From the UHGV virus genome UHGV-1371743: a DNA stretch of 62,614 nt, one strand, 5' to 3'. The notes beneath the pieces are model-generated. The model was not told the origin of the DNA and made no database searches. It was given only the letters and a program-made list of their open reading frames with translations. The stretch is from a virus. The translations under genes and the position numbers were made by a program. Of the stretch, positions 6,302 to 25,994 are shown piece by piece (positions within the stretch are counted from its first letter, which is position 1; the number at the start of each line of letters is the position of its first letter).

Positions 6302-6961
6302 ATGCAAGATGTAAAGGTTATAGGTTCATTTGAAAGCAAGTTTGAGAGTACGAACCGAATTTATGACGAGGGGTGGTGTAGTCCAACATTGAGTACAATG
6401 CAAGGCGGAAATAAAGAACCGAAAATTTTACAAGCTAGTTCGATACGAATGGTGCGAACGGAAGAGGGCAAAGCATTGAGAAAACAATATGAAAACCACG
6501 AATTGCAACACGGATTTAATGAATATCGAGAGCCGGAGTTAAGGAAAGACGGAGTGACTAATACATTAAGTACGGTTCCAAAAGATAATTATGTTTGCGT
6601 TGCTATGCGTGGCAGAAATCCGGAGAATCCATCAGACAGAACGTCAGGAGTACATACAGAGCAATGCTTGGAAATAAATCAAAACGGAACGAGTAATACG
6701 CTCACAAGCGTTCAGAAAGACAATCTAGTGATGCAAACCAATAATTGCATTGATATACAATACAGAATACGAAAACTAACTCCGAGAGAATGTTGGAGAT
6801 TAATGGATTTCAAAGATTATGATTTTGAAAAAGCACAAGAAGTAAATTCAAATACACAGTTGTATAAACAAGCAGGGAATTCGATTGTGAAGAATGTGCT
6901 TGTTGCAATATTTGGACAAATGATTGATGGAAAGGAAAATGTTTACAAGGAGGTGGTCTAA
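6302..6961 (+). CDS. DNA (cytosine-5)-methyltransferase, C-terminal portion (duplicated TRD modules plus motifs IX and X)
   Basis: Carries 'RKLTPRECWRLMDF' (motif IX) and 'LYKQAGNSIVKNVL' (motif X), with two TRD-like 'GVTNTLSTV' / 'GTSNTLTSV' modules. Same frame as 5240..6199 but separated from it by several stops. Confidence 0.75.
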   Translation: MQDVKVIGSFESKFESTNRIYDEGWCSPTLSTMQGGNKEPKILQASSIRMVRTEEGKALRKQYENHELQHGFNEYREPELRKDGVTNTLSTVPKDNYVCVAMRGRNPENPSDRTSGVHTEQCLEINQNGTSNTLTSVQKDNLVMQTNNCIDIQYRIRKLTPRECWRLMDFKDYDFEKAQEVNSNTQLYKQAGNSIVKNVLVAIFGQMIDGKENVYKEVV

Positions 6962-7704
6962 TGCTTATGAAATGTATAAATTCTGGTAGTAGTGGTAATG
7001 GATATGCACTCATTTCAGATGATGAAGTTCTACTAATAGAATGTGGAGTTCCGTCGAAAGAAATGTTGCGTGCGATTGATTATCAGACAAGTAAAGTTGC
7101 CGGATGCCTTATCTCTCATGAGCATGGTTAAGGAGACCATGCAAAGTATATCAAGCAGTACATGAAATACGGTATCAAGTGTTACACCTCTGATGAGGTA
7201 CAGGAACGTATTGAAACAATCTATGGAGAAAAAACGATAGGAATGAATCGTATGCACGTTGCAAAAATCGGTTCATTCCAAGTGATACCGTTCCAGTCAC
7301 CACATAACGGTACAGAATGTGACGGTTTCTTGATTAAACATGAAAAAATAGGTTGCTTGCTATTTATTACAGACGCAGAATATTGCAAATATGATTTCTC
7401 AAAAATGGGTATCAACCATGCAATGATCGAGTGCAATTATTCCGAGGATTACTTAGATGTGGAAGAAAATCAAGGTAAAACAAATCATGTACTGCAAGGA
7501 CACATGGAATTACAAACTTGTAAAAGGCTCATACAGACGATTAACAGTCCAATGCTAAGAAGTGTAGGCTTACTGCATTTAAGTTCACAGAATGGAAATC
7601 CTGAACGATTCAGAGAGGAAATAGAAGAATTGGTCGATTGTGATGTAGATGTGTGGGTAGCAGAAAAAGGTATAGAAAGGGAATTACGGTTGGAACCGTT
7701 TTAG
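6961..7704 (+). pseudogene. MBL-fold metallo-hydrolase interrupted by one in-frame TAA (7129..7131) inside the HxHxDH motif
   Basis: N-terminal segment 'SGSSGNGYALISDDEVLLIECG ... LISHEHG' then TAA then 'GDHAKY...' in the same frame, with ORF 7162..7704 continuing. Deleting 6 nt (ttaagg) would restore HEHGDH. Confidence 0.6.
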
Positions 7705-7711
7705 GTGAGAA

Positions 7712-7933
7712 ATGAAAGAAACATTAAAAGTCAAAGATATTCTTTCGCATTGCGAAGAATCTGCGAAAAAGTGCAGAATTTTAGCAGATAAGGCAATCGA
7801 GAATGTCGGTCATGGAGAAAGTGAAGAATCAGCGATTGGGGCGTGTGCGTTCTTCATGCAGGAGCAGAGAATGTATCGGCAGATTATACCGGACATTATA
7901 AAAGAGCTTGCAGAAAGTGAGGATAAGGAATGA
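7712..7933 (+). CDS. hypothetical protein
   Basis: 73 aa ORF that overlaps the ssb start by 4 nt. Confidence 0.3.
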   Translation: MKETLKVKDILSHCEESAKKCRILADKAIENVGHGESEESAIGACAFFMQEQRMYRQIIPDIIKELAESEDKE

Positions 7934-8370
7934 ACAGCATTGTAATTGTCGGTCGGGCGGTCAGAGACGCAGAAGTGAGATATTCCACAGGCGAAAAGTC
8001 AACAGCATTTGGAAATTACACACTTGCAGTTGATAGACCGTACAAAAAAGACGGAGAGAAAGAAACAGATTTTATCATGTGCAAGGTAGTTGGGAAAACT
8101 GCTGAATTTGCAGAAAAGTATATCACAAAAGGTGTGAAGATGATCGTTCGTGGTCGCATGCAGATTGATAACTACACAGACAGGTACGGAAACAAAAGAC
8201 AATCAGCGTATGTTTTCGTTGAGCAACAGGAATTTGCAGAAAGCAAAAATGCGAATCAGCAGAATAACAATGTGCAGGCTGGTCCGTCACCTTTTGGTAA
8301 TATGCCTACCGATTCGGAGGGGTTCATGAACATTCCTGATGGAATAGACGAAGAATTACCATTTAATTAA
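7930..8370 (+). CDS. ssb: single-stranded DNA-binding protein
   Basis: OB-fold N-terminus 'IVGRAVRDAEVRY...', a Q/N-rich linker and the acidic tail 'DEELPF' characteristic of SSB. Confidence 0.85.
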   Translation: MNSIVIVGRAVRDAEVRYSTGEKSTAFGNYTLAVDRPYKKDGEKETDFIMCKVVGKTAEFAEKYITKGVKMIVRGRMQIDNYTDRYGNKRQSAYVFVEQQEFAESKNANQQNNNVQAGPSPFGNMPTDSEGFMNIPDGIDEELPFN

Positions 8371-8389
8371 AAGAAGGCGGTGACAAAGA

Positions 8390-8986
8390 TTGAGTTATCA
8401 AAACTTTAGACAAATAAAGGCTATTGAGCAAAAGAATAAACAACGGTTGCTTGAGGTTAATTCGAGGTTAGATGATGAAAGTGGAATTTACTTTCTGACA
8501 AGAGAAGATGAACAAGGTTTCCGATACGCTTACATCGGACAAGCAGTACACATTTTGACTAGACTTGCGCAACACCTTGTCGGTTATCAGCATATTGATT
8601 TGTCGCTGAAAAAGCATGGTCTGTATTCAGAAGAGAATCCGTATGGGTGGAAAGTGAATTTTAGACACTATACAACAAATTTGCTTGATAAAATGGAGCA
8701 GTTATGGATTAAGCAGTATGCGGATAAAGGTTATCAGTTAAGAAATAAAACTTCTGGAAGTCAAGGCGAGGGAAAGGCACAGATTGCAGATTATCGACCG
8801 CAGAAAGGTTACAGAGACGGTTTAAAACAAGGAAGAATTAATCTAGCTAGGGAATTATCATCTATCGCAGAAAAGCACCTTAAAATCGAAATTAGAGATG
8901 ACAAGAAGAACAATAAGATTTCACAGAGACAGTTTGAGAAGTTTAAGGAACTGTTAGGAACCGAAAATTATATGGGAGGAAATTAA
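8390..8986 (+). CDS. GIY-YIG domain nuclease-like protein
   Basis: 'SGIYFLT...(11)...YAYIGQA' gives the GIY ... YIG spacing, with a basic C-terminal region. Confidence 0.6.
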   Translation: MSYQNFRQIKAIEQKNKQRLLEVNSRLDDESGIYFLTREDEQGFRYAYIGQAVHILTRLAQHLVGYQHIDLSLKKHGLYSEENPYGWKVNFRHYTTNLLDKMEQLWIKQYADKGYQLRNKTSGSQGEGKAQIADYRPQKGYRDGLKQGRINLARELSSIAEKHLKIEIRDDKKNNKISQRQFEKFKELLGTENYMGGN

Positions 8987-9604
8987 ATGTGTAACATGAA
9001 CAAAATTTTAGAAAAAGCAAAAGAATTAGTAGCAATGTTGGAGGAAAAGGAAATATCGGATAAAGTTGAACTTTCCACAGTTTCTCCGGGCTGTGTGATT
9101 GACCTTGGGGAAGATGAATTTGTGGTGTTAGACCATGATGATGGCGGAACATTGATTATTTCAAAGGGTTTCATGGAAGAAAATGTGAAATTTGGTGATA
9201 ACACTGATTTCAATGGTTCTAATGTGCAGCGTGTGTTGTATGAAGATATTCTTCCGAAGATTGAAGCAACTGTTGGAAAAGACAATGTTCTTTCACAGAC
9301 TGTGAAATTAACAACAGTTGATAATCAGAATATTTATGAAGATGTGACTGGAAGAATCCGGTTACTGACATTTGATGAAGTTAGAAAATACAATCCGTTG
9401 ATCGTGAATAAAGATTTGGATGATTATTGGTGGACAATGACTCCGTGGACAAGCAATGATAGATGGAAATATCCAATCGCCGTTGTTTCGCCGGTTGGCG
9501 GCATCTACGACTGGTTCTACTATGGCAGCAACGGTGTTCGCCCGGTTTTGTATCTTAAATCTAATATCTTTGTATCTTTGGGAGGAAAATTCGATGAGAA
9601 ATAA
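8987..9604 (+). CDS. DGR target protein 1 (DUF1566/C-type-lectin-fold-like, VR1 at C-terminus)
   Basis: C-terminal 'RLLTFDEVRKY...YWWTMTPW...AVVSPVGGIYDWFYYGSNGVRPV' fits the DUF1566/CLec pattern. Its 3' end is a near-copy of the TR that differs only at TR adenines. Confidence 0.7.
   Translation: MCNMNKILEKAKELVAMLEEKEISDKVELSTVSPGCVIDLGEDEFVVLDHDDGGTLIISKGFMEENVKFGDNTDFNGSNVQRVLYEDILPKIEATVGKDNVLSQTVKLTTVDNQNIYEDVTGRIRLLTFDEVRKYNPLIVNKDLDDYWWTMTPWTSNDRWKYPIAVVSPVGGIYDWFYYGSNGVRPVLYLKSNIFVSLGGKFDEK
9480..9544 (+). repeat. DGR variable repeat VR1
   Basis: 65-nt alignment to TR 10611..10675 gives 10 mismatches, all at TR adenine positions. Confidence 0.8.
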
Positions 9605-10211
9605 ACTTGAGCAAAAATTAAATGAACTGGAACGGAAGTTAGACGACGGTTTAAATGAATTAAAAAAGTTAAAAGCAAAATTAGAAGCGGAAAAGCTCGC
9701 AGGATTAAAAATCGGAGATACCTTTGAATTAATTGGGAAAAAATGGAAGATTCTGGATTCGAATGAAAATGACATGCTATGCATTTGTATGGAATCTCTA
9801 GGAGATAAAACATTTGATTCAGAATGCAACAAATGGACATCAAGTAATTTAAGAAATTATCTCAATACAGAAATATATAAAAAAATCTGTGAAGAAATTG
9901 GTGAAGAGAATGTGATTGAGTTTGAACGCAATCTGTTGTCTCTTGATGGTCAAACAGAGTACGGAGCTTGCAAAGATTTTGTTTCATTGATTTCGATTGA
10001 TGAATACAGAACGTATCGAAGTCTGATTCCAAATTTTGATGAATGGTGGTGGATGCTTTCACCGTATAGCACAAAATGTAACGAGGATTCAAGTTATGTT
10101 TCCGTTGTTTCGCCGGTTGGCGGCATCAACTTCGGGAACTACGTTAACAGCATCGGTGTTCGCCCAGTTTGTATCTTTTCATCTACGCTCTTTGAATCAG
10201 AGGATGAGTAA
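9594..10211 (+). CDS. DGR target protein 2 (paralog of target 1; N-terminal coiled coil; VR2 at C-terminus)
   Basis: ATG at 9594 with a GGAGG RBS, in the same frame as listed ORF 9456..10211. C-terminal 'WWWMLSPY...VVSPVGGINFGNYVNSIGVRPV'. Confidence 0.7.
   Translation: MRNKLEQKLNELERKLDDGLNELKKLKAKLEAEKLAGLKIGDTFELIGKKWKILDSNENDMLCICMESLGDKTFDSECNKWTSSNLRNYLNTEIYKKICEEIGEENVIEFERNLLSLDGQTEYGACKDFVSLISIDEYRTYRSLIPNFDEWWWMLSPYSTKCNEDSSYVSVVSPVGGINFGNYVNSIGVRPVCIFSSTLFESEDE
10102..10166 (+). repeat. DGR variable repeat VR2
   Basis: 65-nt alignment to the TR gives 7 mismatches, all at TR adenines (A to G or T). Confidence 0.8.
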
Positions 10212-10583
10212 ATGGCAGAAACAGAGTTGCAGGTAATTTTAAAAGCAATGGAACTTTCCGAGCATACATTGAGACTGACATCGAACTGTAACCGTTATCC
10301 AAAAAAATATCGGTTTTCACTTGTAGATAAAATGCAAAATAAATGTCTTTGTATCTACGAATCGTTGATGGAAGCAAACCGGACTGACATAAGAGAATAT
10401 AAACGTGAACGTATGGAATTGCAGACCAAAGCGATTACATATTGCGATGAGATGTTGTTTTATATCGAATTATCTATGAAACTAAACATCATCAATACAA
10501 AAAGCATGGAATATTGGTCGAAAATGGTAAAAGATATTAAACACATGACGATCGCTTGGAGGAAGAAAGATAGAGGAAGATAG
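10212..10583 (+). CDS. avd: DGR accessory variability determinant (Avd-like four-helix-bundle protein)
   Basis: 123 aa basic helical protein sitting between the target genes and the TR, as in the canonical target-avd-TR-RT layout. The 'NRYPKKYRF...LCIYESL' region resembles the Avd family. Confidence 0.6.
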   Translation: MAETELQVILKAMELSEHTLRLTSNCNRYPKKYRFSLVDKMQNKCLCIYESLMEANRTDIREYKRERMELQTKAITYCDEMLFYIELSMKLNIINTKSMEYWSKMVKDIKHMTIAWRKKDRGR

Positions 10584-10610
10584 TAAAATCATAGGTTATA
10601 TATCGTTAAA

Positions 10611-10675
10611 CCGTTGTTTCGCCGGTTGGCGACATCAACAACAGGAACTACAATAACAGCAACGGTGTTCGCCCA
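10611..10675 (+). repeat. DGR template repeat (TR), non-coding, A-rich (AAC-type codons in the VR frame)
   Basis: Intergenic copy of the VRs. In the VR frame it contains gac/aac aac agg/aac tac aat aac agc aac, and the adenines are exactly the positions that differ in VR1 and VR2. Confidence 0.8.
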
Positions 10676-10737
10676 TTCTGTATTACAGACAGTCGGAGTA
10701 GGCAGCAAGCTGAAACCAGAGAAAGAGATACAAAAAG

Positions 10738-11808
10738 ATGTATGACCTTCCCCAAATGGGTAAATACAAAGGAGTTTATGAAATGGACAAGGACATTATT
10801 ACGAATTTTGAAAATCTGTACCGCGCTTATAAAAAAGCGAAACTTGGTAAAAGTCATAATGGAAGTTGTGCAAGATTTCAAAATATGAGTCTTGAGGGAA
10901 TTCATCTGCTGAAAGAACAATTAGAAAACCAGACGTATCAGATTGGAAAGTACAGTCAGTTTAAGATTTATGAGCCAAAAGAGCGAGTGATAATGTCCTG
11001 CTCATTCAAAGATAAGGTTGTTCAGCATTGTTTGTGTGATAATATCTTGCATCCACGATTGCAAAATGTGTTCATTGAAACTAATTCTGCCGGGCAAGTT
11101 GGTAAAGGTACGTTATTCGGTATGGATAAGTTGAAAGAACAAATGCTGGCATTCTATAGAGAACATAGAATAGACGGTTGGATTTTGAAATGCGACATTG
11201 CAAAATTCTTTTACAGTATCAACCATGAGGTCTTGAAAGATATTGTGGATTACTATTTTCCGAATAGTTATACAACATGGTTGAACCACTTGTTTATTGA
11301 TAGCACGAACGGTTTTGGACTTCCACTAGGAAATCAAGTTGCACAAGTATATGCCTTAATGATGTTGGACTGCATTGATCATATGATAACTGGAGAGCTT
11401 GGAATCAGATATTACGGTCGATATATGGATGATTTCTATTTGATACACTACGATAAATCATATTTGAAATACTGCCTTCTTTATATAGAAGAAATGGTTT
11501 CAAGTTTAGGATTATCACTGAATGGGAAAACACAAATTTGTCCGTTCAAAAATGGTATTCGGTATCTTGGGTTTCATCATTATATGACGAAAGATGGAAA
11601 ATATATTCGACGGTTGAATTCCGAAAATAAACGTAGAGCGAAGAAGAAAGTCAGAAATATGTTGCGATTGTTAAAAGCAAGGAAAATAAGTGAGAAAGAA
11701 TTTCAAAATAAGTACGGTTCGTGGAAGAATCATGCCTCACATGGAAATACAGTGAAGCTGGTACATTCAATGGATTTGCACATAAAATCAGAGATTGAGA
11801 AAGGATAG
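10738..11808 (+). CDS. DGR-type reverse transcriptase (start may be the ATG at 10783 with an AAAGGAG RBS)
   Basis: RT motifs present: 'YEPKERVIMSCSFKDKVVQHCL', 'DIAKFFYSINHEVL', DGR-style motif 4 'GLPLGNQVAQVYA', 'YGRYMDDF', and 'GLSLNGKTQICPF...RYLGFH'. Confidence 0.85.
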   Translation: MYDLPQMGKYKGVYEMDKDIITNFENLYRAYKKAKLGKSHNGSCARFQNMSLEGIHLLKEQLENQTYQIGKYSQFKIYEPKERVIMSCSFKDKVVQHCLCDNILHPRLQNVFIETNSAGQVGKGTLFGMDKLKEQMLAFYREHRIDGWILKCDIAKFFYSINHEVLKDIVDYYFPNSYTTWLNHLFIDSTNGFGLPLGNQVAQVYALMMLDCIDHMITGELGIRYYGRYMDDFYLIHYDKSYLKYCLLYIEEMVSSLGLSLNGKTQICPFKNGIRYLGFHHYMTKDGKYIRRLNSENKRRAKKKVRNMLRLLKARKISEKEFQNKYGSWKNHASHGNTVKLVHSMDLHIKSEIEKG

Positions 11809-11851
11809 GTTATATAAAACGGTAATTTTATGATAACGGAGTACCTCTGAA

Positions 11852-12358
11852 ATGAGCGGCTGGATAAAAATACATAGAGACATTTTGTATCACGAAATAT
11901 GGAGTGATAAGCCATTTTCAAAAGGGCAGGCGTGGATAGACCTTATTCTACTGGCGAATCATTCAGACAATAAATGCATGGTCGGGAATAAGGTGGAAGA
12001 AGTTAAACGTGGTAGTTTTATCACATCAGAATTGAAATTGATGGACAGATGGGGATGGGGCAGAAAAAAGGTTCAGTTGTTCTTGAAGTTTCTGGAAAGT
12101 GAATCCATGATTGTCCGAAGTGCGAACAACAAAAGAACAGCAATAACCATTGTGAATTATGATGTTTATCAATATCAGGGAACATCAAAAGAACAACAAA
12201 AGAACAACAAAGGAACATCAAAAGCACACAAACAAGAAAGAAAGAATGAAAAGAATGTAAGAAATTATAATAATTTCGAGCGTAGGAAGTACGACATGGA
12301 TTCACTAGAAAGTAAGTTGATGGAGGTGAATATGAATGGCAAAATCAATAAAGCATAG
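11852..12358 (+). CDS. phage replisome organizer / DnaD-like N-terminal wHTH protein
   Basis: 'IKIHRDIL...KGQAWIDLILLANH' matches the replisome-organizer N-terminal region. The C-terminus is low-complexity K/N/Q-rich. Confidence 0.5.
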   Translation: MSGWIKIHRDILYHEIWSDKPFSKGQAWIDLILLANHSDNKCMVGNKVEEVKRGSFITSELKLMDRWGWGRKKVQLFLKFLESESMIVRSANNKRTAITIVNYDVYQYQGTSKEQQKNNKGTSKAHKQERKNEKNVRNYNNFERRKYDMDSLESKLMEVNMNGKINKA

Positions 12359-12832
12359 TTTCAATGGAAGTCCAAGGAAACAGTCGATAGGATACAAGAC
12401 TGGTAATATGGCAGCTTTTATGTATGCCGGTTCAAAACGAAAGAGAAAGAAAAGGGTGAAAGGAAAATGAACTGGGTGAACAAAGCACATAAGAGAATAG
12501 AAAAGCAAAAATCTGACGAAAAGTATAGTAAGGATTTGAGAAATGCATTAGATTTATTCTTCTTGATCACAGCAGACTATCTGCACAGGCATGAGTGATA
12601 TTCAAAAAAGAGACTTATTAGGTTCATCGATTTTGCAGTTCAACAACTGCATTACGCGGAAGAAGATAGTAACTACTTTCTCTTGATGAATGAAGCGTTA
12701 TGTGACGAAACCGGGATAAATGTTTTAAAGGGATTTGTGAGAAAGAAAAAGAAATATAAGAAGTGACAACAGGAATTTTGATACTGGCAGCGTTTCTGAT
12801 CGGAGCAATGGTCGGGTACTGCTGCGGAAAGG

Positions 12833-13354
12833 ATGAATAATATGGAAAAGGAATTTACAAAAGCAGATTTGAAAGATGGTATGGTGATTGAAACAAGAGA
12901 AAGAGGAAGATACCTTGTGCTTGGAAATATAGTTGTAAGAAATGGTGGTTACAACAGGTTAAGCAGATATGGGGATGATTTAAAAGAACATTCATTTCAC
13001 AATAAAGCATATGACATTGTTAGAGTTTTTAAGGTAAGGAATGATTGCTCGAGCAATTTAGAAGGTCTACTTGAAGATTGCAATCTTGAAATTATCTGGG
13101 ATCGCAAAGAAACCAAGCGCATGACTGCCGAAGCAATGCGACAGAAGTTGGAAGAACTGACAGGAGAGAAGATTGAGGTTGAACCAAGTAGAGAAGAGAT
13201 GATTGGTGCGTGTTATGAGTTCTGCAATAAAAGAAAATGTTTGAGCACATGTGCTTTGAGAGATAGCGGAACTTGCACTTTTAGAAACTATTCCGATGAA
13301 CAATTAAAAGAATGCTACGAGAAGGCGATGAAAGATGAACGAAAAGAAAGTTAG
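12833..13354 (+). CDS. hypothetical protein
   Basis: 173 aa ORF. Confidence 0.35.
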   Translation: MNNMEKEFTKADLKDGMVIETRERGRYLVLGNIVVRNGGYNRLSRYGDDLKEHSFHNKAYDIVRVFKVRNDCSSNLEGLLEDCNLEIIWDRKETKRMTAEAMRQKLEELTGEKIEVEPSREEMIGACYEFCNKRKCLSTCALRDSGTCTFRNYSDEQLKECYEKAMKDERKES

Positions 13355-15966: not shown

Positions 15967-16200
15967 ATGAGATTAGGAAAGTATTTATCCTCATTGACTA
16001 AGCCGGAACTTGAAGAATTAAGAGATTTATTAAATTTATCCGATGATGAATATCCGATTTTTGAAGAATTATCTCACGGTAGAAGCAAAGTATATATTTC
16101 CGATCAATGTAAAATATGTGTTTCTACCGTGGATAATCGGATAAGAGCAATTCGGAAGAAATTAGAACGGTTACAGAATGGTGGTGTTACCGGTGGCTGA
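15967..16200 (+). CDS. sigma-70 region-4-like small transcriptional regulator (RinA/ArpU-like, tentative)
   Basis: 'ISDQCKICVSTVDNRIRAIRKKL' is an HTH resembling sigma region 4. Confidence 0.4.
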   Translation: MRLGKYLSSLTKPELEELRDLLNLSDDEYPIFEELSHGRSKVYISDQCKICVSTVDNRIRAIRKKLERLQNGGVTGG

Positions 16201-17404
16201 GTTATCAAAAGCTGAATTATTGAATTATGCGGTAGAAAATGGTATAGTTGATATCAACACCATAACCAAGCAAATTGAGATGAATGAAAGAAAAAAATAT
16301 CTTGAAATGCACAAATATGAAATTTGGCAAGGGGAAAAAGACAACAAATGGTATACTTACTTGCCGGATGATAAGAAAGGGAGGCGTTTACTAAAGCGGA
16401 TTTCGTTGGAGTCGCTGCAAGAGTGTATTATTTCCTATTATAAAGAAGAAAAATATAATCCAACGGTATATGATATTTTTAAGGAGTGGATTGACGGTAA
16501 ATTAGATCGTGACGAAATACAAAAATCTACTTGGGATAGATATTACAGACAATACGATGAAAGCATGAGGGACTTTGGAAAAAGAAGAATAAAATCCATT
16601 GAGGAATGTGACATTGAAGATTTTATACTTTCTGCTATCCATGAGAACGAGTTGACTTCAAAAGGGTATAGTAATCTACGGACATTAATTTATGGCACGT
16701 TTAAGAGGGCAAAAAAGAGAAAGCTGGTCGGATTTAGCATAACAGAAGTGATTTCAGATATGGAAATATCGAAAAAGAGTTTTAGAAAAAATATAAAACA
16801 AGACGAAGAGTTGGTATTTTCAGAAATTGAAAAGGACAAAATCATCAATCATATCAAGGATTCAGATATGGATATTATTTCTCTTGGTATACTTTTGTAT
16901 TTTAAAACCGGTATGAGACCAGGGGAACTAGTAGCGATAAAACAGTCGGACATCAATGAACGTGTTATACATATATGCAGAACTGAAATTTGCTACAAAA
17001 ATGAAAATAAAAAGAACGTATATGAGGTTCGTGATTTTCCTAAAACAGAAGCAGGGATACGCGATATAATTCTTCCCACCTCATCAAAATGGATTATTAA
17101 AAAAATAAAAATGATAAATCCTTTTGGGGAATATCTATTTGAATTAAACGGGAAAAGAATAAGAACATATAGTTTTACATCAAGATTAAAGTCAATATGC
17201 AAAAAGCTAGATATTAGTCCGAAGTCTTTAAATAAAATAAGAAAAACTTATGCCACCACTTTAATAGATAGTGGAGTAGAAGAGTCTTTGATTATATCTC
17301 AAATGGGACATACAGATATTGATACAACAAAAAAATATTATTACAAAAACAGAAAAAATCTGGAACAAAAAGAAAAGGCAATAGATATGGTTTCTAATCT
17401 ATAA
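16178..17404 (+). CDS. int: tyrosine site-specific integrase (start uncertain; alternative ATG at 16280)
   Basis: C-terminal catalytic region '...MGHTDIDTTKKYY' with the conserved Tyr, and a SAM-like N-terminal domain. Confidence 0.8.
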   Translation: MVVLPVAELSKAELLNYAVENGIVDINTITKQIEMNERKKYLEMHKYEIWQGEKDNKWYTYLPDDKKGRRLLKRISLESLQECIISYYKEEKYNPTVYDIFKEWIDGKLDRDEIQKSTWDRYYRQYDESMRDFGKRRIKSIEECDIEDFILSAIHENELTSKGYSNLRTLIYGTFKRAKKRKLVGFSITEVISDMEISKKSFRKNIKQDEELVFSEIEKDKIINHIKDSDMDIISLGILLYFKTGMRPGELVAIKQSDINERVIHICRTEICYKNENKKNVYEVRDFPKTEAGIRDIILPTSSKWIIKKIKMINPFGEYLFELNGKRIRTYSFTSRLKSICKKLDISPKSLNKIRKTYATTLIDSGVEESLIISQMGHTDIDTTKKYYYKNRKNLEQKEKAIDMVSNL

Positions 17405-24743: not shown

Positions 24744-24974
24744 CTATGCTTCTTCCATCCAGATGTTATATATCTGCTCTGGGCTGTATTCTGTAAACCA
24801 CGAAACAACCATTTCTAATTGTTCGCCCATTTCTTCCCAGATGATTTTTAAATCATTTCCGATTGTTTCACAGTCAAGGAATTTTCCGCTGATACCGTAA
24901 TCAATTTCACTGTTCTTGTACCAACTATTTGTAATTTTCTCATTTAGATAATTTTTAATATTTTCAATTTTCAT
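24744..24974 (-). CDS. hypothetical protein (minus strand)
   Basis: 76 aa ORF with a hairpin downstream of its stop. Confidence 0.4.
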   Translation of the reverse strand: MKIENIKNYLNEKITNSWYKNSEIDYGISGKFLDCETIGNDLKIIWEEMGEQLEMVVSWFTEYSPEQIYNIWMEEA

Positions 24975-25059
24975 GTTTTCCCTTTCTGGTCTGCCATCAT
25001 CAGCACCGGGAGACCGTCCCGCGGTGGACGCTCCTAAGAGCGTTTCGGCTGTTTATAAA

Positions 25060-25362
25060 TTACAAAAAAACTTCATCTTCTCTATAGTATTCTTCCATGT
25101 CAACAGCTGCACTGAATCGGTCTGAAACGCTGAAAGAATAGCCAAAATCTTTATTATAATTTTTGCTTGCCTCTGTCGCTATGTAGTAGTATGCGTCAAC
25201 GGCTTTTTCCTTGTCATATGCGCCTTTGATGGCTTTCTTTCTTAAGTTTTCGATTATCGGCGTTATCATTCTTCTGTATAAATCGTCGTCGCTCGTTGCG
25301 TATAAAAATAAATCTATGCTTTTAGAGGTTTCTTTGTAAATCATGGATTTTGTTCTTTTCAT
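25060..25362 (-). CDS. hypothetical protein (minus strand)
   Basis: 100 aa ORF. Confidence 0.4.
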   Translation of the reverse strand: MKRTKSMIYKETSKSIDLFLYATSDDDLYRRMITPIIENLRKKAIKGAYDKEKAVDAYYYIATEASKNYNKDFGYSFSVSDRFSAAVDMEEYYREDEVFL

Positions 25363-25664: not shown

Positions 25665-25994
25665 ATGAATAATAATGTAATAGAAATAACAGAAACCGAG
25701 CTGAATGGCTACCACATTAAAAAAGTGTATAATGGATGGATGATTGCGGAAAATGGGGAGATGTTCAAAACTTGCGTTGATGCGGAACGTTATATAAGGA
25801 ACGGATTGAAAAGAACGACAGAAGCGCAAAGAAGAGCGGTTTATAATTATGATGATACTTTTGAACGTGTAAATTGTCGTTTTGCTAAAGGCACGAAAGA
25901 ACGCATAAAGAAAATAGGATATAAAAGCGTTAATGATTACATAAAATTAGCAGTCATGGAAAAGTTGGAACGTGACGAAAAAATATTGAACTAA
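25665..25994 (+). CDS. ribbon-helix-helix-type DNA-binding protein (C-terminal RHH)
   Basis: C-terminal 'VNCRFAKGTKERIKKIGYKSVNDYIKLAVMEKLERDE' looks like an RHH. RBS 'aaaggag'. Confidence 0.5.
   Translation: MNNNVIEITETELNGYHIKKVYNGWMIAENGEMFKTCVDAERYIRNGLKRTTEAQRRAVYNYDDTFERVNCRFAKGTKERIKKIGYKSVNDYIKLAVMEKLERDEKILN

Follow-up and report, generated by a model that had tools for sequence, protein, structure and literature searches.

Introduction

In the ribonucleoprotein of the diversity-generating retroelement (DGR) of Bordetella phage BPP-1, the spacer RNA pairs with the 3' end of avd to form the 'cPRT Stop' duplex, which is adjoined by a short stem-loop and then by A-minor adenosines, and duplexes of this type, with an average length of 13 bp, are found in 207 of 278 DGRs (bioRxiv 10.1101/2023.10.23.563531). 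In the phages of gut Firmicutes, DGRs with DUF6273 targets have been described in nd4 and nd12, where a 'tentaclin' is accompanied by a small tgt2 (PMC10743442), in the Faecalibacterium phages Lelie, CP11, Roos and Pioen (PMC11792537), and in a hotspot of Toutatisvirus (bioRxiv 10.1101/2024.10.15.618418); among the published cases are some with two targets per template repeat (TR) and others whose small, single-domain targets have helices on their flanks (PMC10743442; PMC11792537; bioRxiv 10.1101/2024.10.15.618418). Quimbyvirus ('Quimbyviridae') provides the precedent for a phage DGR target encoded outside the structural module (PMC8008677). Here we analyse the DGR found at positions 8987-11808 of UHGV-1371743, a stretch of 62,614 nucleotides (nt), called the window throughout, which is the complete circular 62.6-kb genome of a temperate human-gut phage.

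On the basis of the sequence comparisons presented below, we hold with high confidence that this region is an intact and active DGR. It had been proposed beforehand from the letters of the window (the original prediction) as a locus with the order target, avd, TR and reverse transcriptase (RT). All canonical DGR elements are indeed present, in the order target 1, target 2, avd, TR and RT, and their positions are the following.

8987..9604, plus strand: target gene 1, 205 amino acids (aa), a short N-terminal helix and a DUF6273 / C-type-lectin-fold domain
9480..9544, plus strand: variable repeat (VR) 1, codons 165-186 of target 1, hypervariable residues 172-182
9533..9554, plus strand: 3' end of VR1 and its flank, similar to an initiation of mutagenic homing (IMH) site, GGTGTTCGCCC[G/A]GTTTTGTATC
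9594..10211, plus strand: target gene 2, 205 aa, an N-terminal helix of 35 residues and a DUF6273 / C-type-lectin-fold domain
10102..10166, plus strand: VR2, occupying codons 170-191 of target 2 and hypervariable at residues 177-187
10155..10175, plus strand: 3' end of VR2 and its flank, IMH-like, GGTGTTCGCCCAGTTTGTATC, with one T fewer than the VR1 flank
10212..10583, plus strand: avd, accessory variability determinant, 123 aa, whose start abuts the stop codon of target 2
10611..10675, plus strand: TR, 65 nt with 18 adenines, non-coding
10783..11808, plus strand: DGR reverse transcriptase, 341 aa from the ATG at 10783 (the longest open reading frame (ORF), from 10738, has 356 aa)

Template and variable repeats

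The three copies of about 65 nt starting at 9480, 10102 and 10611 were recovered as a single repeat family exactly where they had been predicted, and a search of both strands of the window, allowing any base at the sites of the TR adenines, yielded no fourth copy. Over the core, there are 10 mismatches between the TR and VR1 and 7 between the TR and VR2, and the claim that these mismatches are adenine-specific is borne out by all of them (17/17). The variable sites represent 13 of the 18 adenines of the 65-position TR, and the hypergeometric probability that all 13 would fall on A is 5.2e-10. Differences at bases other than A begin past the core, as had been noticed, the first being at offset 65, where T10676 of the TR corresponds to a G in both VR1 and VR2.

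Read in the frame of the VRs, the template is GAC ATC AAC AAC AGG AAC TAC AAT AAC AGC AAC, and its predicted richness in AAC is real, with 5 AAC among the 11 adenine-bearing codons. The codons randomised are therefore GAC, ATC, five AAC, AGG, TAC, AAT and AGC; according to the genetic code, A-to-N changes in these 11 codons give about 8.7e9 protein variants per target and cannot create a stop codon.

The original prediction extended the adenine rule to the three bases immediately 5' of the core, AAA in the TR and TCG or TTT in the VRs. These letters are correct in the window, but the bases are not mutagenised: in 21 related contigs they are always TCG before VR1 and always TTT before VR2, while the core varies heavily. 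The AAA triplet therefore lies outside the transferred segment, its being A is a coincidence, and we discarded it as a part of the TR.

At their 3' end, the TR and both VRs share an identical A-free, GC-rich 11-mer, GGTGTTCGCCC, after which the bases differ, the TR continuing with ATTCTGTATT and the VRs with R-GTTTTGTATC and AGTTTGTATC. By analogy with BPP-1, the 3' segments of the VRs would function as IMH.

Variation in natural populations

The same element was found on 7 IMG/VR and 14 metagenome contigs, and this sample bears on the test that the original prediction had named beforehand, the heterogeneity of the VRs in populations: a near-constant TR faces many VR alleles that differ at A sites. 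The TR is identical in 19 of the 22 copies of the element. Among the 15 copies of VR1 that accompany the standard TR there are 12 alleles, whose 128 substitutions are all at TR-A sites; the 14 copies of VR2 comprise 6 alleles of equal length, in which 58 substitutions affect A sites and 2 affect other bases, both at the extreme 5' end. Together, 186 of the 188 substitutions in 18 distinct alleles are located at TR adenines. When ten collinear contigs are compared, 9-22 differences are counted in the 130 nt of the VRs and 0-10 in the other 1684 nt. In contigs L007 and L013 there are no differences at all outside the VRs, and 9 and 19, respectively, inside them.

The same pattern is seen at the protein level. 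The 90% identity clusters of the targets are of unusual size, that of target 1 having 1016 members and those of target 2 having 129 + 341, and among the members listed almost all the variation is confined to residues 172-182 of target 1 and 177-187 of target 2, where the hypervariable columns, which are exactly the codons holding TR adenines, display up to 11 different residues each. In the contigs with a variant TR, the non-A change of the TR is mirrored in both VRs, which shows that the information flows from TR to VR; the contrast between a near-constant TR and variable VRs supports the same direction.

VR2 appears, from these sequences, to be renewed less than VR1: the exact target 2 protein is present on 506 public contigs, and the exact target 1 protein on 26. 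In addition, VR2 keeps point mutations at its extreme 5' end (CCATTG, CCGCTG) and exists in two in-frame length variants, of -3 and +3 nt.

These data bear on the possibility that the locus is a fossil, a formerly active DGR whose TR/VR differences are relics and which no longer diversifies its targets. The sharing of one VR2 by many contigs and the presence of the exact target 2 protein on the 506 just mentioned would fit such a state, as would the existence of a related prophage that has both targets without avd, TR and RT, and the evidence for activity consists of sequences only. On the other side, the RT with its catalytic YMDD, Avd and the TR are all intact, contigs that are identical or nearly so outside the VRs differ in their VR alleles, as in L007 and L013, the 15 copies of VR1 fall into 12 alleles, and the clusters hold hundreds of variants differing only in the VR. 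We consequently regard a fossil as very improbable.

Reverse transcriptase and Avd

The closest relative of solved structure of the RT is bRT of BPP-1 (PDB 8ub7), which is matched with E 2.4e-37 over residues 19-342, against E 6e-7 or worse for the RTs of group II introns and retrons. Sequence similarity thus ranks the DGR RT of BPP-1 far ahead and agrees with the expectation that the enzyme would not be nearest to the RTs of group II introns or retrons. It also matches phrog_1423 (E 5e-98).

The reading in which the RT would be that of a group II intron, a retron or a DRT/UG system, and in which the repeats would come from paralogy, gene conversion or positive selection, can draw on the weak and partial similarity that NCBIfam and PADLOC detect with models of group II, Drt3a and UG-type RTs and on the fact that Pfam recognises only the generic RVT_1 domain. 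We consider it hardly credible. These matches are far below their cut-offs, in contrast to the full-length match to the BPP-1 enzyme; the third copy of the repeat does not vary and encodes no protein; neither selection nor gene conversion would restrict 186 of 188 changes to TR-A positions; and Rfam, at gathering thresholds, gives no match in the DGR region, neither intron RNA domains nor a retron msr/msd.

The DGR-type RT contains the motifs GLPLGNQVAQVYA and YGRYMDDF, which had been reported in the protein downstream of the TR and are present in the ORF 10738..11808. The usual signature of motif 4 in the RTs of DGRs is [I/L/V]GxxxSQ. The assignment of the present motif to this SQ type was mistaken, since it reads LGNQVAQ and ends in AQ. 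Of 120 close homologues examined, 118 have a recognisable motif 4 and all 118 carry AQ, which is a trait of the whole clade and a variant of the signature; considering the natural diversification described above, the serine of motif 4 appears dispensable in this clade. In bRT, the residues R74, I181 and Q187 contact the incoming nucleotide and the template (bioRxiv 10.1101/2023.10.23.563531). In the alignment, the position of R74 is occupied by the R of EPKERVI, and those of I181 and Q187 by the L and the Q of GLPLGNQVAQ.

Translation of the RT probably starts at the ATG 10783 rather than at 10738. This choice is based on the length of the homologues, about half of which have 339-344 aa, on their frequent MDKDII start, which corresponds to the ATG 10783, on the AAAGGAG that precedes this codon, on conservation in the family, and on the location of the ATG 10738 inside a conserved RNA helix described in the next section.

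The 123-aa ORF located between the targets and the TR is related to PHROG 3206, 'Avd protein of DGR', with E 5e-21; a sequence search of the PDB with this protein gave no significant match.

RNA structure around the template repeat

We collected 80 related loci through the alignment of their RTs and aligned 48 distinct sequences from the avd stop codon to the RT start. RNAalifold and pair counts delineate the following features, to which we add a proposed primer strand.

10593..10604, plus strand: 5' strand of helix P1, AGGUUAUAUAUC, between the avd stop codon and the TR
10677..10689, plus strand: hairpin P2, UCUGU-AUU-ACAGA, directly 3' of the TR, overlapping the segment that resembles an IMH* site
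10727..10735, plus strand: proposed primer strand, the conserved GAUACAAAA, complementary to 10676-10684
10737..10748, plus strand: 3' strand of helix P1, GAUGUAUGACCU, holding the upstream ATG 10738
10750..10774, plus strand: hairpin P4 (stem 10750-10752 / 10758-10760) followed by the A-rich strand UAAAUACAAAGGAG

P1 is a long-range helix of 12 bp that encloses the TR and the spacer and is 97% paired over the 48 sequences. Nine of its 12 pairs show compensatory changes, for example CG 25 / UA 22 and AU 25 / GC 17 / CG 2; none of 500 shuffles reaches its score, and sliding the register by 1-3 columns lowers the pairing to 22-46%. Judged from these sequences, P1 corresponds in its position to the 'cPRT Stop' duplex that avd and Sp form in BPP-1. 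P2 has 5 bp, 99.6% paired, three of them with compensatory changes, and is a possible counterpart, by analogy, of the stem-loop to which Avd binds in BPP-1, though it is much shorter. P4 has 3 bp, 100% paired, with UA 31 / CG 15 for its first pair, and the UAAAUACAAAGGAG strand after it is an invariant A-rich single strand that includes the Shine-Dalgarno sequence of the RT.

The conserved GAUACAAAA would be the strand that primes complementary DNA (cDNA) synthesis, by analogy with the Sp47-56:TR117-129 pairing of BPP-1. Its pairing with 10676-10684 involves 9 positions and is 88.5% paired in the family, and the first base templated under this pairing, A10675, is the last site seen varying in VR1. 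In one sequence (L052), a single change is compensated in the partners of both P2 and the primer pairing.

An exact 12-nt direct repeat, ATAGGTTATATA, brackets the TR and the RT at 10591-10602 and 11805-11816, its first copy being the 5' strand of P1. We considered it as the mark of a mobile TR-RT unit or as a second pairing partner and abandoned both possibilities because it is not conserved in the other 47 sequences of the family; it is probably due to chance or is the scar of a local recombination.

A model for the diversification of the targets

The model that we propose relies on analogy with BPP-1. The transcript extending from the 3' end of avd through the TR and the spacer to the 5' end of the RT gene would fold so that P1 acts as a stop element, and GAUACAAAA, paired with 10676-10684, would prime the synthesis of cDNA in cis at about A10675. 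The RT-Avd complex would copy the TR faithfully except opposite adenines. The cDNA would end just 5' of the TR and would replace VR1 or VR2, the replacement being guided by the identical A-free ends of the repeats, a 21-nt block on the 5' side and the GC-rich GGTGTTCGCCC block on the 3' side.

Several observations weigh against an intact and active DGR working in this manner. On the RNA side, the proposed primer pairing is accompanied by few covariation events (three, each in a single sequence) and uses the same bases as P2, the spacer of about 107 nt is shorter than that of BPP-1, and no counterpart of the long stem-loop that binds bRT in BPP-1 was identified. On the protein side, motif 4 departs from the textbook SQ, and the 123-aa ORF obtains E 5e-12 and 46 bits with the NCBIfam model DivGenRetAVD, for which the cut-off is 80, and stays below the gathering scores of the Pfam models 23S_rRNA_IVP and bAvd. 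At the VRs, the 3' flank of VR1 folds no better than shuffled sequences (z +2.45), and that of VR2 forms a weak stem alone (z +1.17), with no convincing hairpin. A DNA hairpin or cruciform 3' of the VR exists in BPP-1 and several other DGRs and is not universal, so that its absence here is not disqualifying. Finally, the activity deduced from assembled metagenome contigs is a diversification in the recent past and not a rate for today.

Target proteins

The two targets are paralogues with 30% identity over 202 aa (E 5e-18), and the gene of target 2 overlaps that of target 1 by 11 nt. For target 2 an ORF finder gives 9456..10211, but its homologues have 205 aa, which fits the predicted start at 9594. 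Target 1 matches phrog_9958 with E 1.2e-28, and target 2 is in the same PHROG. The domain diversified is DUF6273 (PF19789), with a C-type-lectin fold, instead of the DUF1566 that had been suggested: target 2 scores 33 bits, above the gathering score of 23.5, and target 1 remains below it with 17.2 bits (E 0.005) but shows homology to target 2 and shares its PHROG. The fold matches of the targets, each with its score, are as follows.

N-terminal DUF6273 domain of the IgA peptidase from Thomasclavelia ramosa: 15.1
C-terminal domain of Legionella Lcl: 8.3
TvpA of Treponema, which is a DGR target: 6.7
C-type lectins, several dozen: about 6

The viral structures matched are uncharacterised DUF6273 proteins from gut phage metagenomes. 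In both targets the VR is located at the C-terminal end of the domain that adopts a C-type-lectin fold, and the diversified residues form a surface loop or hairpin on the lectin-like domain. Most likely, the targets bind ligands, with a specificity that is constantly being changed.

Genome context and the function of the targets

We consider the genome as circular because an SbcC-like AAA_23 ORF, about 683 aa long, begins near 61.4 kb, reads across the end of the window into its start and stops at 980; it matches the intact gene of the related prophage L023 (2.4-Mb bacterial contig ERZ27273435). The integrase is encoded at 16178-17404, the terminase, portal and major head protein at 32-38 kb, and the tail genes at 44-56 kb. 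The DGR is preceded by the genes of a single-stranded DNA-binding protein (SSB, 7930-8370) and of a phrog_19106 protein (8390-8986), with RecT, methyltransferases and a hydrolase further upstream, and is followed by the gene of a DnaD-like loader (11852-12358). The genes of this block, from SSB to the DnaD-like gene, abut or overlap. A scan of 6900-13000 for promoters and terminators found none within the block, a result that is uninformative since there were fewer sites than in shuffled sequences. The placement of the DGR in a recombination and replication module, away from the tail genes, is its unusual point.

This arrangement is not limited to the window. Two small tandem targets followed by avd, TR and RT recur in about 70 contigs of IMG/VR, the identity of the RTs being 68-72%, and the neighbours are again the RecT, hydrolase, SSB and DnaD-like genes. 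One of the relatives, L079 (IMGVR_UViG_3300045988_094465), has four VRs at offsets of -2196, -1604, -1098 and -506 from the TR, that is four tandem targets served by one TR. The prophage L023 keeps the succession SSB, phrog_19106, target 1 and target 2 and has a 73-aa ORF in place of avd, TR and RT (L023:9394-11322); the VR-like ends of its targets share non-A differences from the TR of the window. In L029 and L032 the RT is followed by the same 73-aa ORF, which implies that L023 differs by a clean presence or absence of avd-TR-RT.

The gene that precedes target 1, assigned to phrog_19106 with E 1e-99, shows a weak GIY-YIG-like match at its N-terminus and a weak match, E 4e-8 over about 35 residues, to the candidate defence family PDC-S14 of PADLOC; it accompanies both targets even in L023, which is devoid of a DGR.

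Two readings of the function of the targets have to be weighed. In the first, to which we give an even chance, the targets would be receptor-binding or adhesion proteins of the virion, analogous to Mtd or to the small 'tgt2', with their N-terminal helices attached to a component of the tail or capsid, and diversification would shift the host range or the adherence to mucus or glycans. Against it, over 20 kb separate the target genes from the modules for head and tail, the target genes abut the SSB, phrog_19106 and DnaD-like genes with no promoter or terminator predicted between them, their early-module placement is conserved in about 70 related phages, and they are without a domain known to dock on tail fibres.

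In the second reading, which we put forward tentatively and hold to be the less probable of the two, the targets would be hypervariable, non-structural binders expressed early and acting in or on the infected or lysogenic cell. They may for instance be directed against variable components of the host defence or surface, mediate superinfection exclusion, or be secreted or cell-associated adhesins that benefit the lysogen. Several facts favour it: the position in the recombination and replication module, conserved in these contigs of Lachnospiraceae-type gut phages; the tight packing with the SSB, phrog_19106 and DnaD-like genes, with methyltransferases upstream; the Tad3 (anti-Thoeris) and Lar restriction-alleviation domains encoded 1-2 kb downstream in L023; the phage DGR target situated in a defence-related island in Quimbyvirus (PMC8008677); and a prophage DUF6273 protein targeted by a DGR and found in a bacterial secretome without phage particles (bioRxiv 10.64898/2026.05.08.723808). 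On the other hand, inspection of the target sequences revealed no signal peptide or membrane segment, the targets have no similarity to known anti-defence proteins, PADLOC giving no match, and the position of a gene is weak evidence on timing or function. If the targets were non-structural, targeted hypermutation would serve an intracellular or cell-associated conflict and not the switching of host range.

Proteins identical to the targets are named [Ruminococcus] torques in the NCBI database, the entry for target 1 being a hypothetical protein. An exact-pattern scan for the 3' end of the TR in one genome per species (GTDB) gave no match, and the host assignment therefore rests solely on the NCBI names of these identical proteins. 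Megablast of the cassette against 50,697 GenBank phage records was without a match, and for the structural half the sole match in the same records was to the terminase and portal of Dulem virus 39 (15% / 76%); the deposited named phages therefore include no close relative.

Other features of the genome

Outside the DGR, three further features of the window were recorded.

24985-25050, minus strand: type II hammerhead ribozyme, full length (Rfam RF02276, 59.8 bits for a gathering score of 37, E 7e-10)
25486, 25522, 25560, 25616 and 26016: five exact copies of TATAAGGCACAAA
30324-30396, plus strand: tRNA-Gln (anticodon UUG), just upstream of the packaging genes

The hammerhead sits in the 85-nt gap between the minus-strand ORFs 25060-25362 and 24744-24974, a pair that forms the one block in reverse orientation, all other genes being on the plus strand, and where the GC skew is about 0. 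As predicted from its sequence, it would cleave a bicistronic transcript between its two flanking genes. Four of the TATAAGGCACAAA copies are in the divergent intergenic region that leads from the minus-strand block to the plus-strand ORF at 25665, and judging from their arrangement they look like putative operator or iteron sites of a regulatory switch.

Significance

The window provides a clean DGR whose diversification in nature is demonstrable and whose host phage is highly prevalent in the human gut. Its compactness, with a TR of 65 nt, 11 randomised codons and two targets that can be compared in one genome, makes it a convenient model. The alignment of its family brings independent covariation support for the conservation, in distant DGRs, of the RNA stop duplex of BPP-1, and the conserved early-module placement constitutes a second and much larger case beside the Quimbyvirus observation. 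Apart from these two points, the RNA covariation and the early placement, the element adds no new principle. The early-module family makes directly testable whether phage DGRs diversify non-structural proteins too.

Comparison with known systems

With BPP-1 (mtd-avd-TR-brt), the element of the window shares the order of target, avd, TR and RT, an RT homologous over its full length, the presence of Avd, the adenine-specific transfer from TR to VR into the C-terminus of a protein with a C-type-lectin fold, and a duplex in which the spacer pairs with the region upstream of the TR and after which come a short hairpin and adenosines (bioRxiv 10.1101/2023.10.23.563531). It differs from BPP-1 by its two tandem targets instead of one and by its 65-nt TR, which has 134 nt in BPP-1. 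Its targets are DUF6273 proteins of 205 aa devoid of the beta-prism and beta-sandwich of Mtd. It is without a hairpin flanking the VR, its motif 4 has AQ instead of SQ, its spacer is shorter and its post-TR hairpin much smaller. Finally, its cassette is in the replication module and not beside tail-fibre genes.

The resemblance to the DUF6273 DGRs of gut Firmicutes phages comprises the C-lectin-like target, the C-terminal VR that forms a surface hairpin, the single TR with two targets, and the succession Avd-TR-RT. The RT of the window has 37-48% identity with the RTs of nd12, nd4, Lelie, Brigit and Toutatis, and its targets are 28-33% identical to those of the named DUF6273 phages. As in Toutatisvirus, some relatives retain the targets without a DGR (bioRxiv 10.1101/2024.10.15.618418). 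Unlike the window, these gut Firmicutes phages have one large target with Ig domains, of the 'tentaclin' or Hoc-like type, and their targets are encoded within or close to modules for structure or lysis, or at a distance from the TR, whereas both targets of the window are small single-domain paralogues placed in tandem, directly upstream of avd, in the early module.

Quimbyvirus resembles the window by a C-type-lectin target located away from the structural genes, beside methyltransferases and conflict-related genes, but it is a phage of Bacteroides with an RT divided among three frames (PMC8008677). One of its two targets adjoins tail-fibre genes, whereas in the window the early module contains the entire cassette, including both targets. 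The DUF6273 domain of the Thomasclavelia ramosa IgA peptidase (PDB 9qa6; PMC12402451), with a sequence identity of 16%, belongs to a multidomain protease that is secreted and anchored to the cell wall, and it is not diversified by a DGR.

In conclusion, since DGRs with DUF6273 targets have already been published in gut phages, the element of the window is a further case of these and not a new kind. What is particular to it is the combination of tandem small paralogous targets upstream of avd, a short TR, the AQ motif, the lack of a VR hairpin, and an early placement that is conserved throughout its family.

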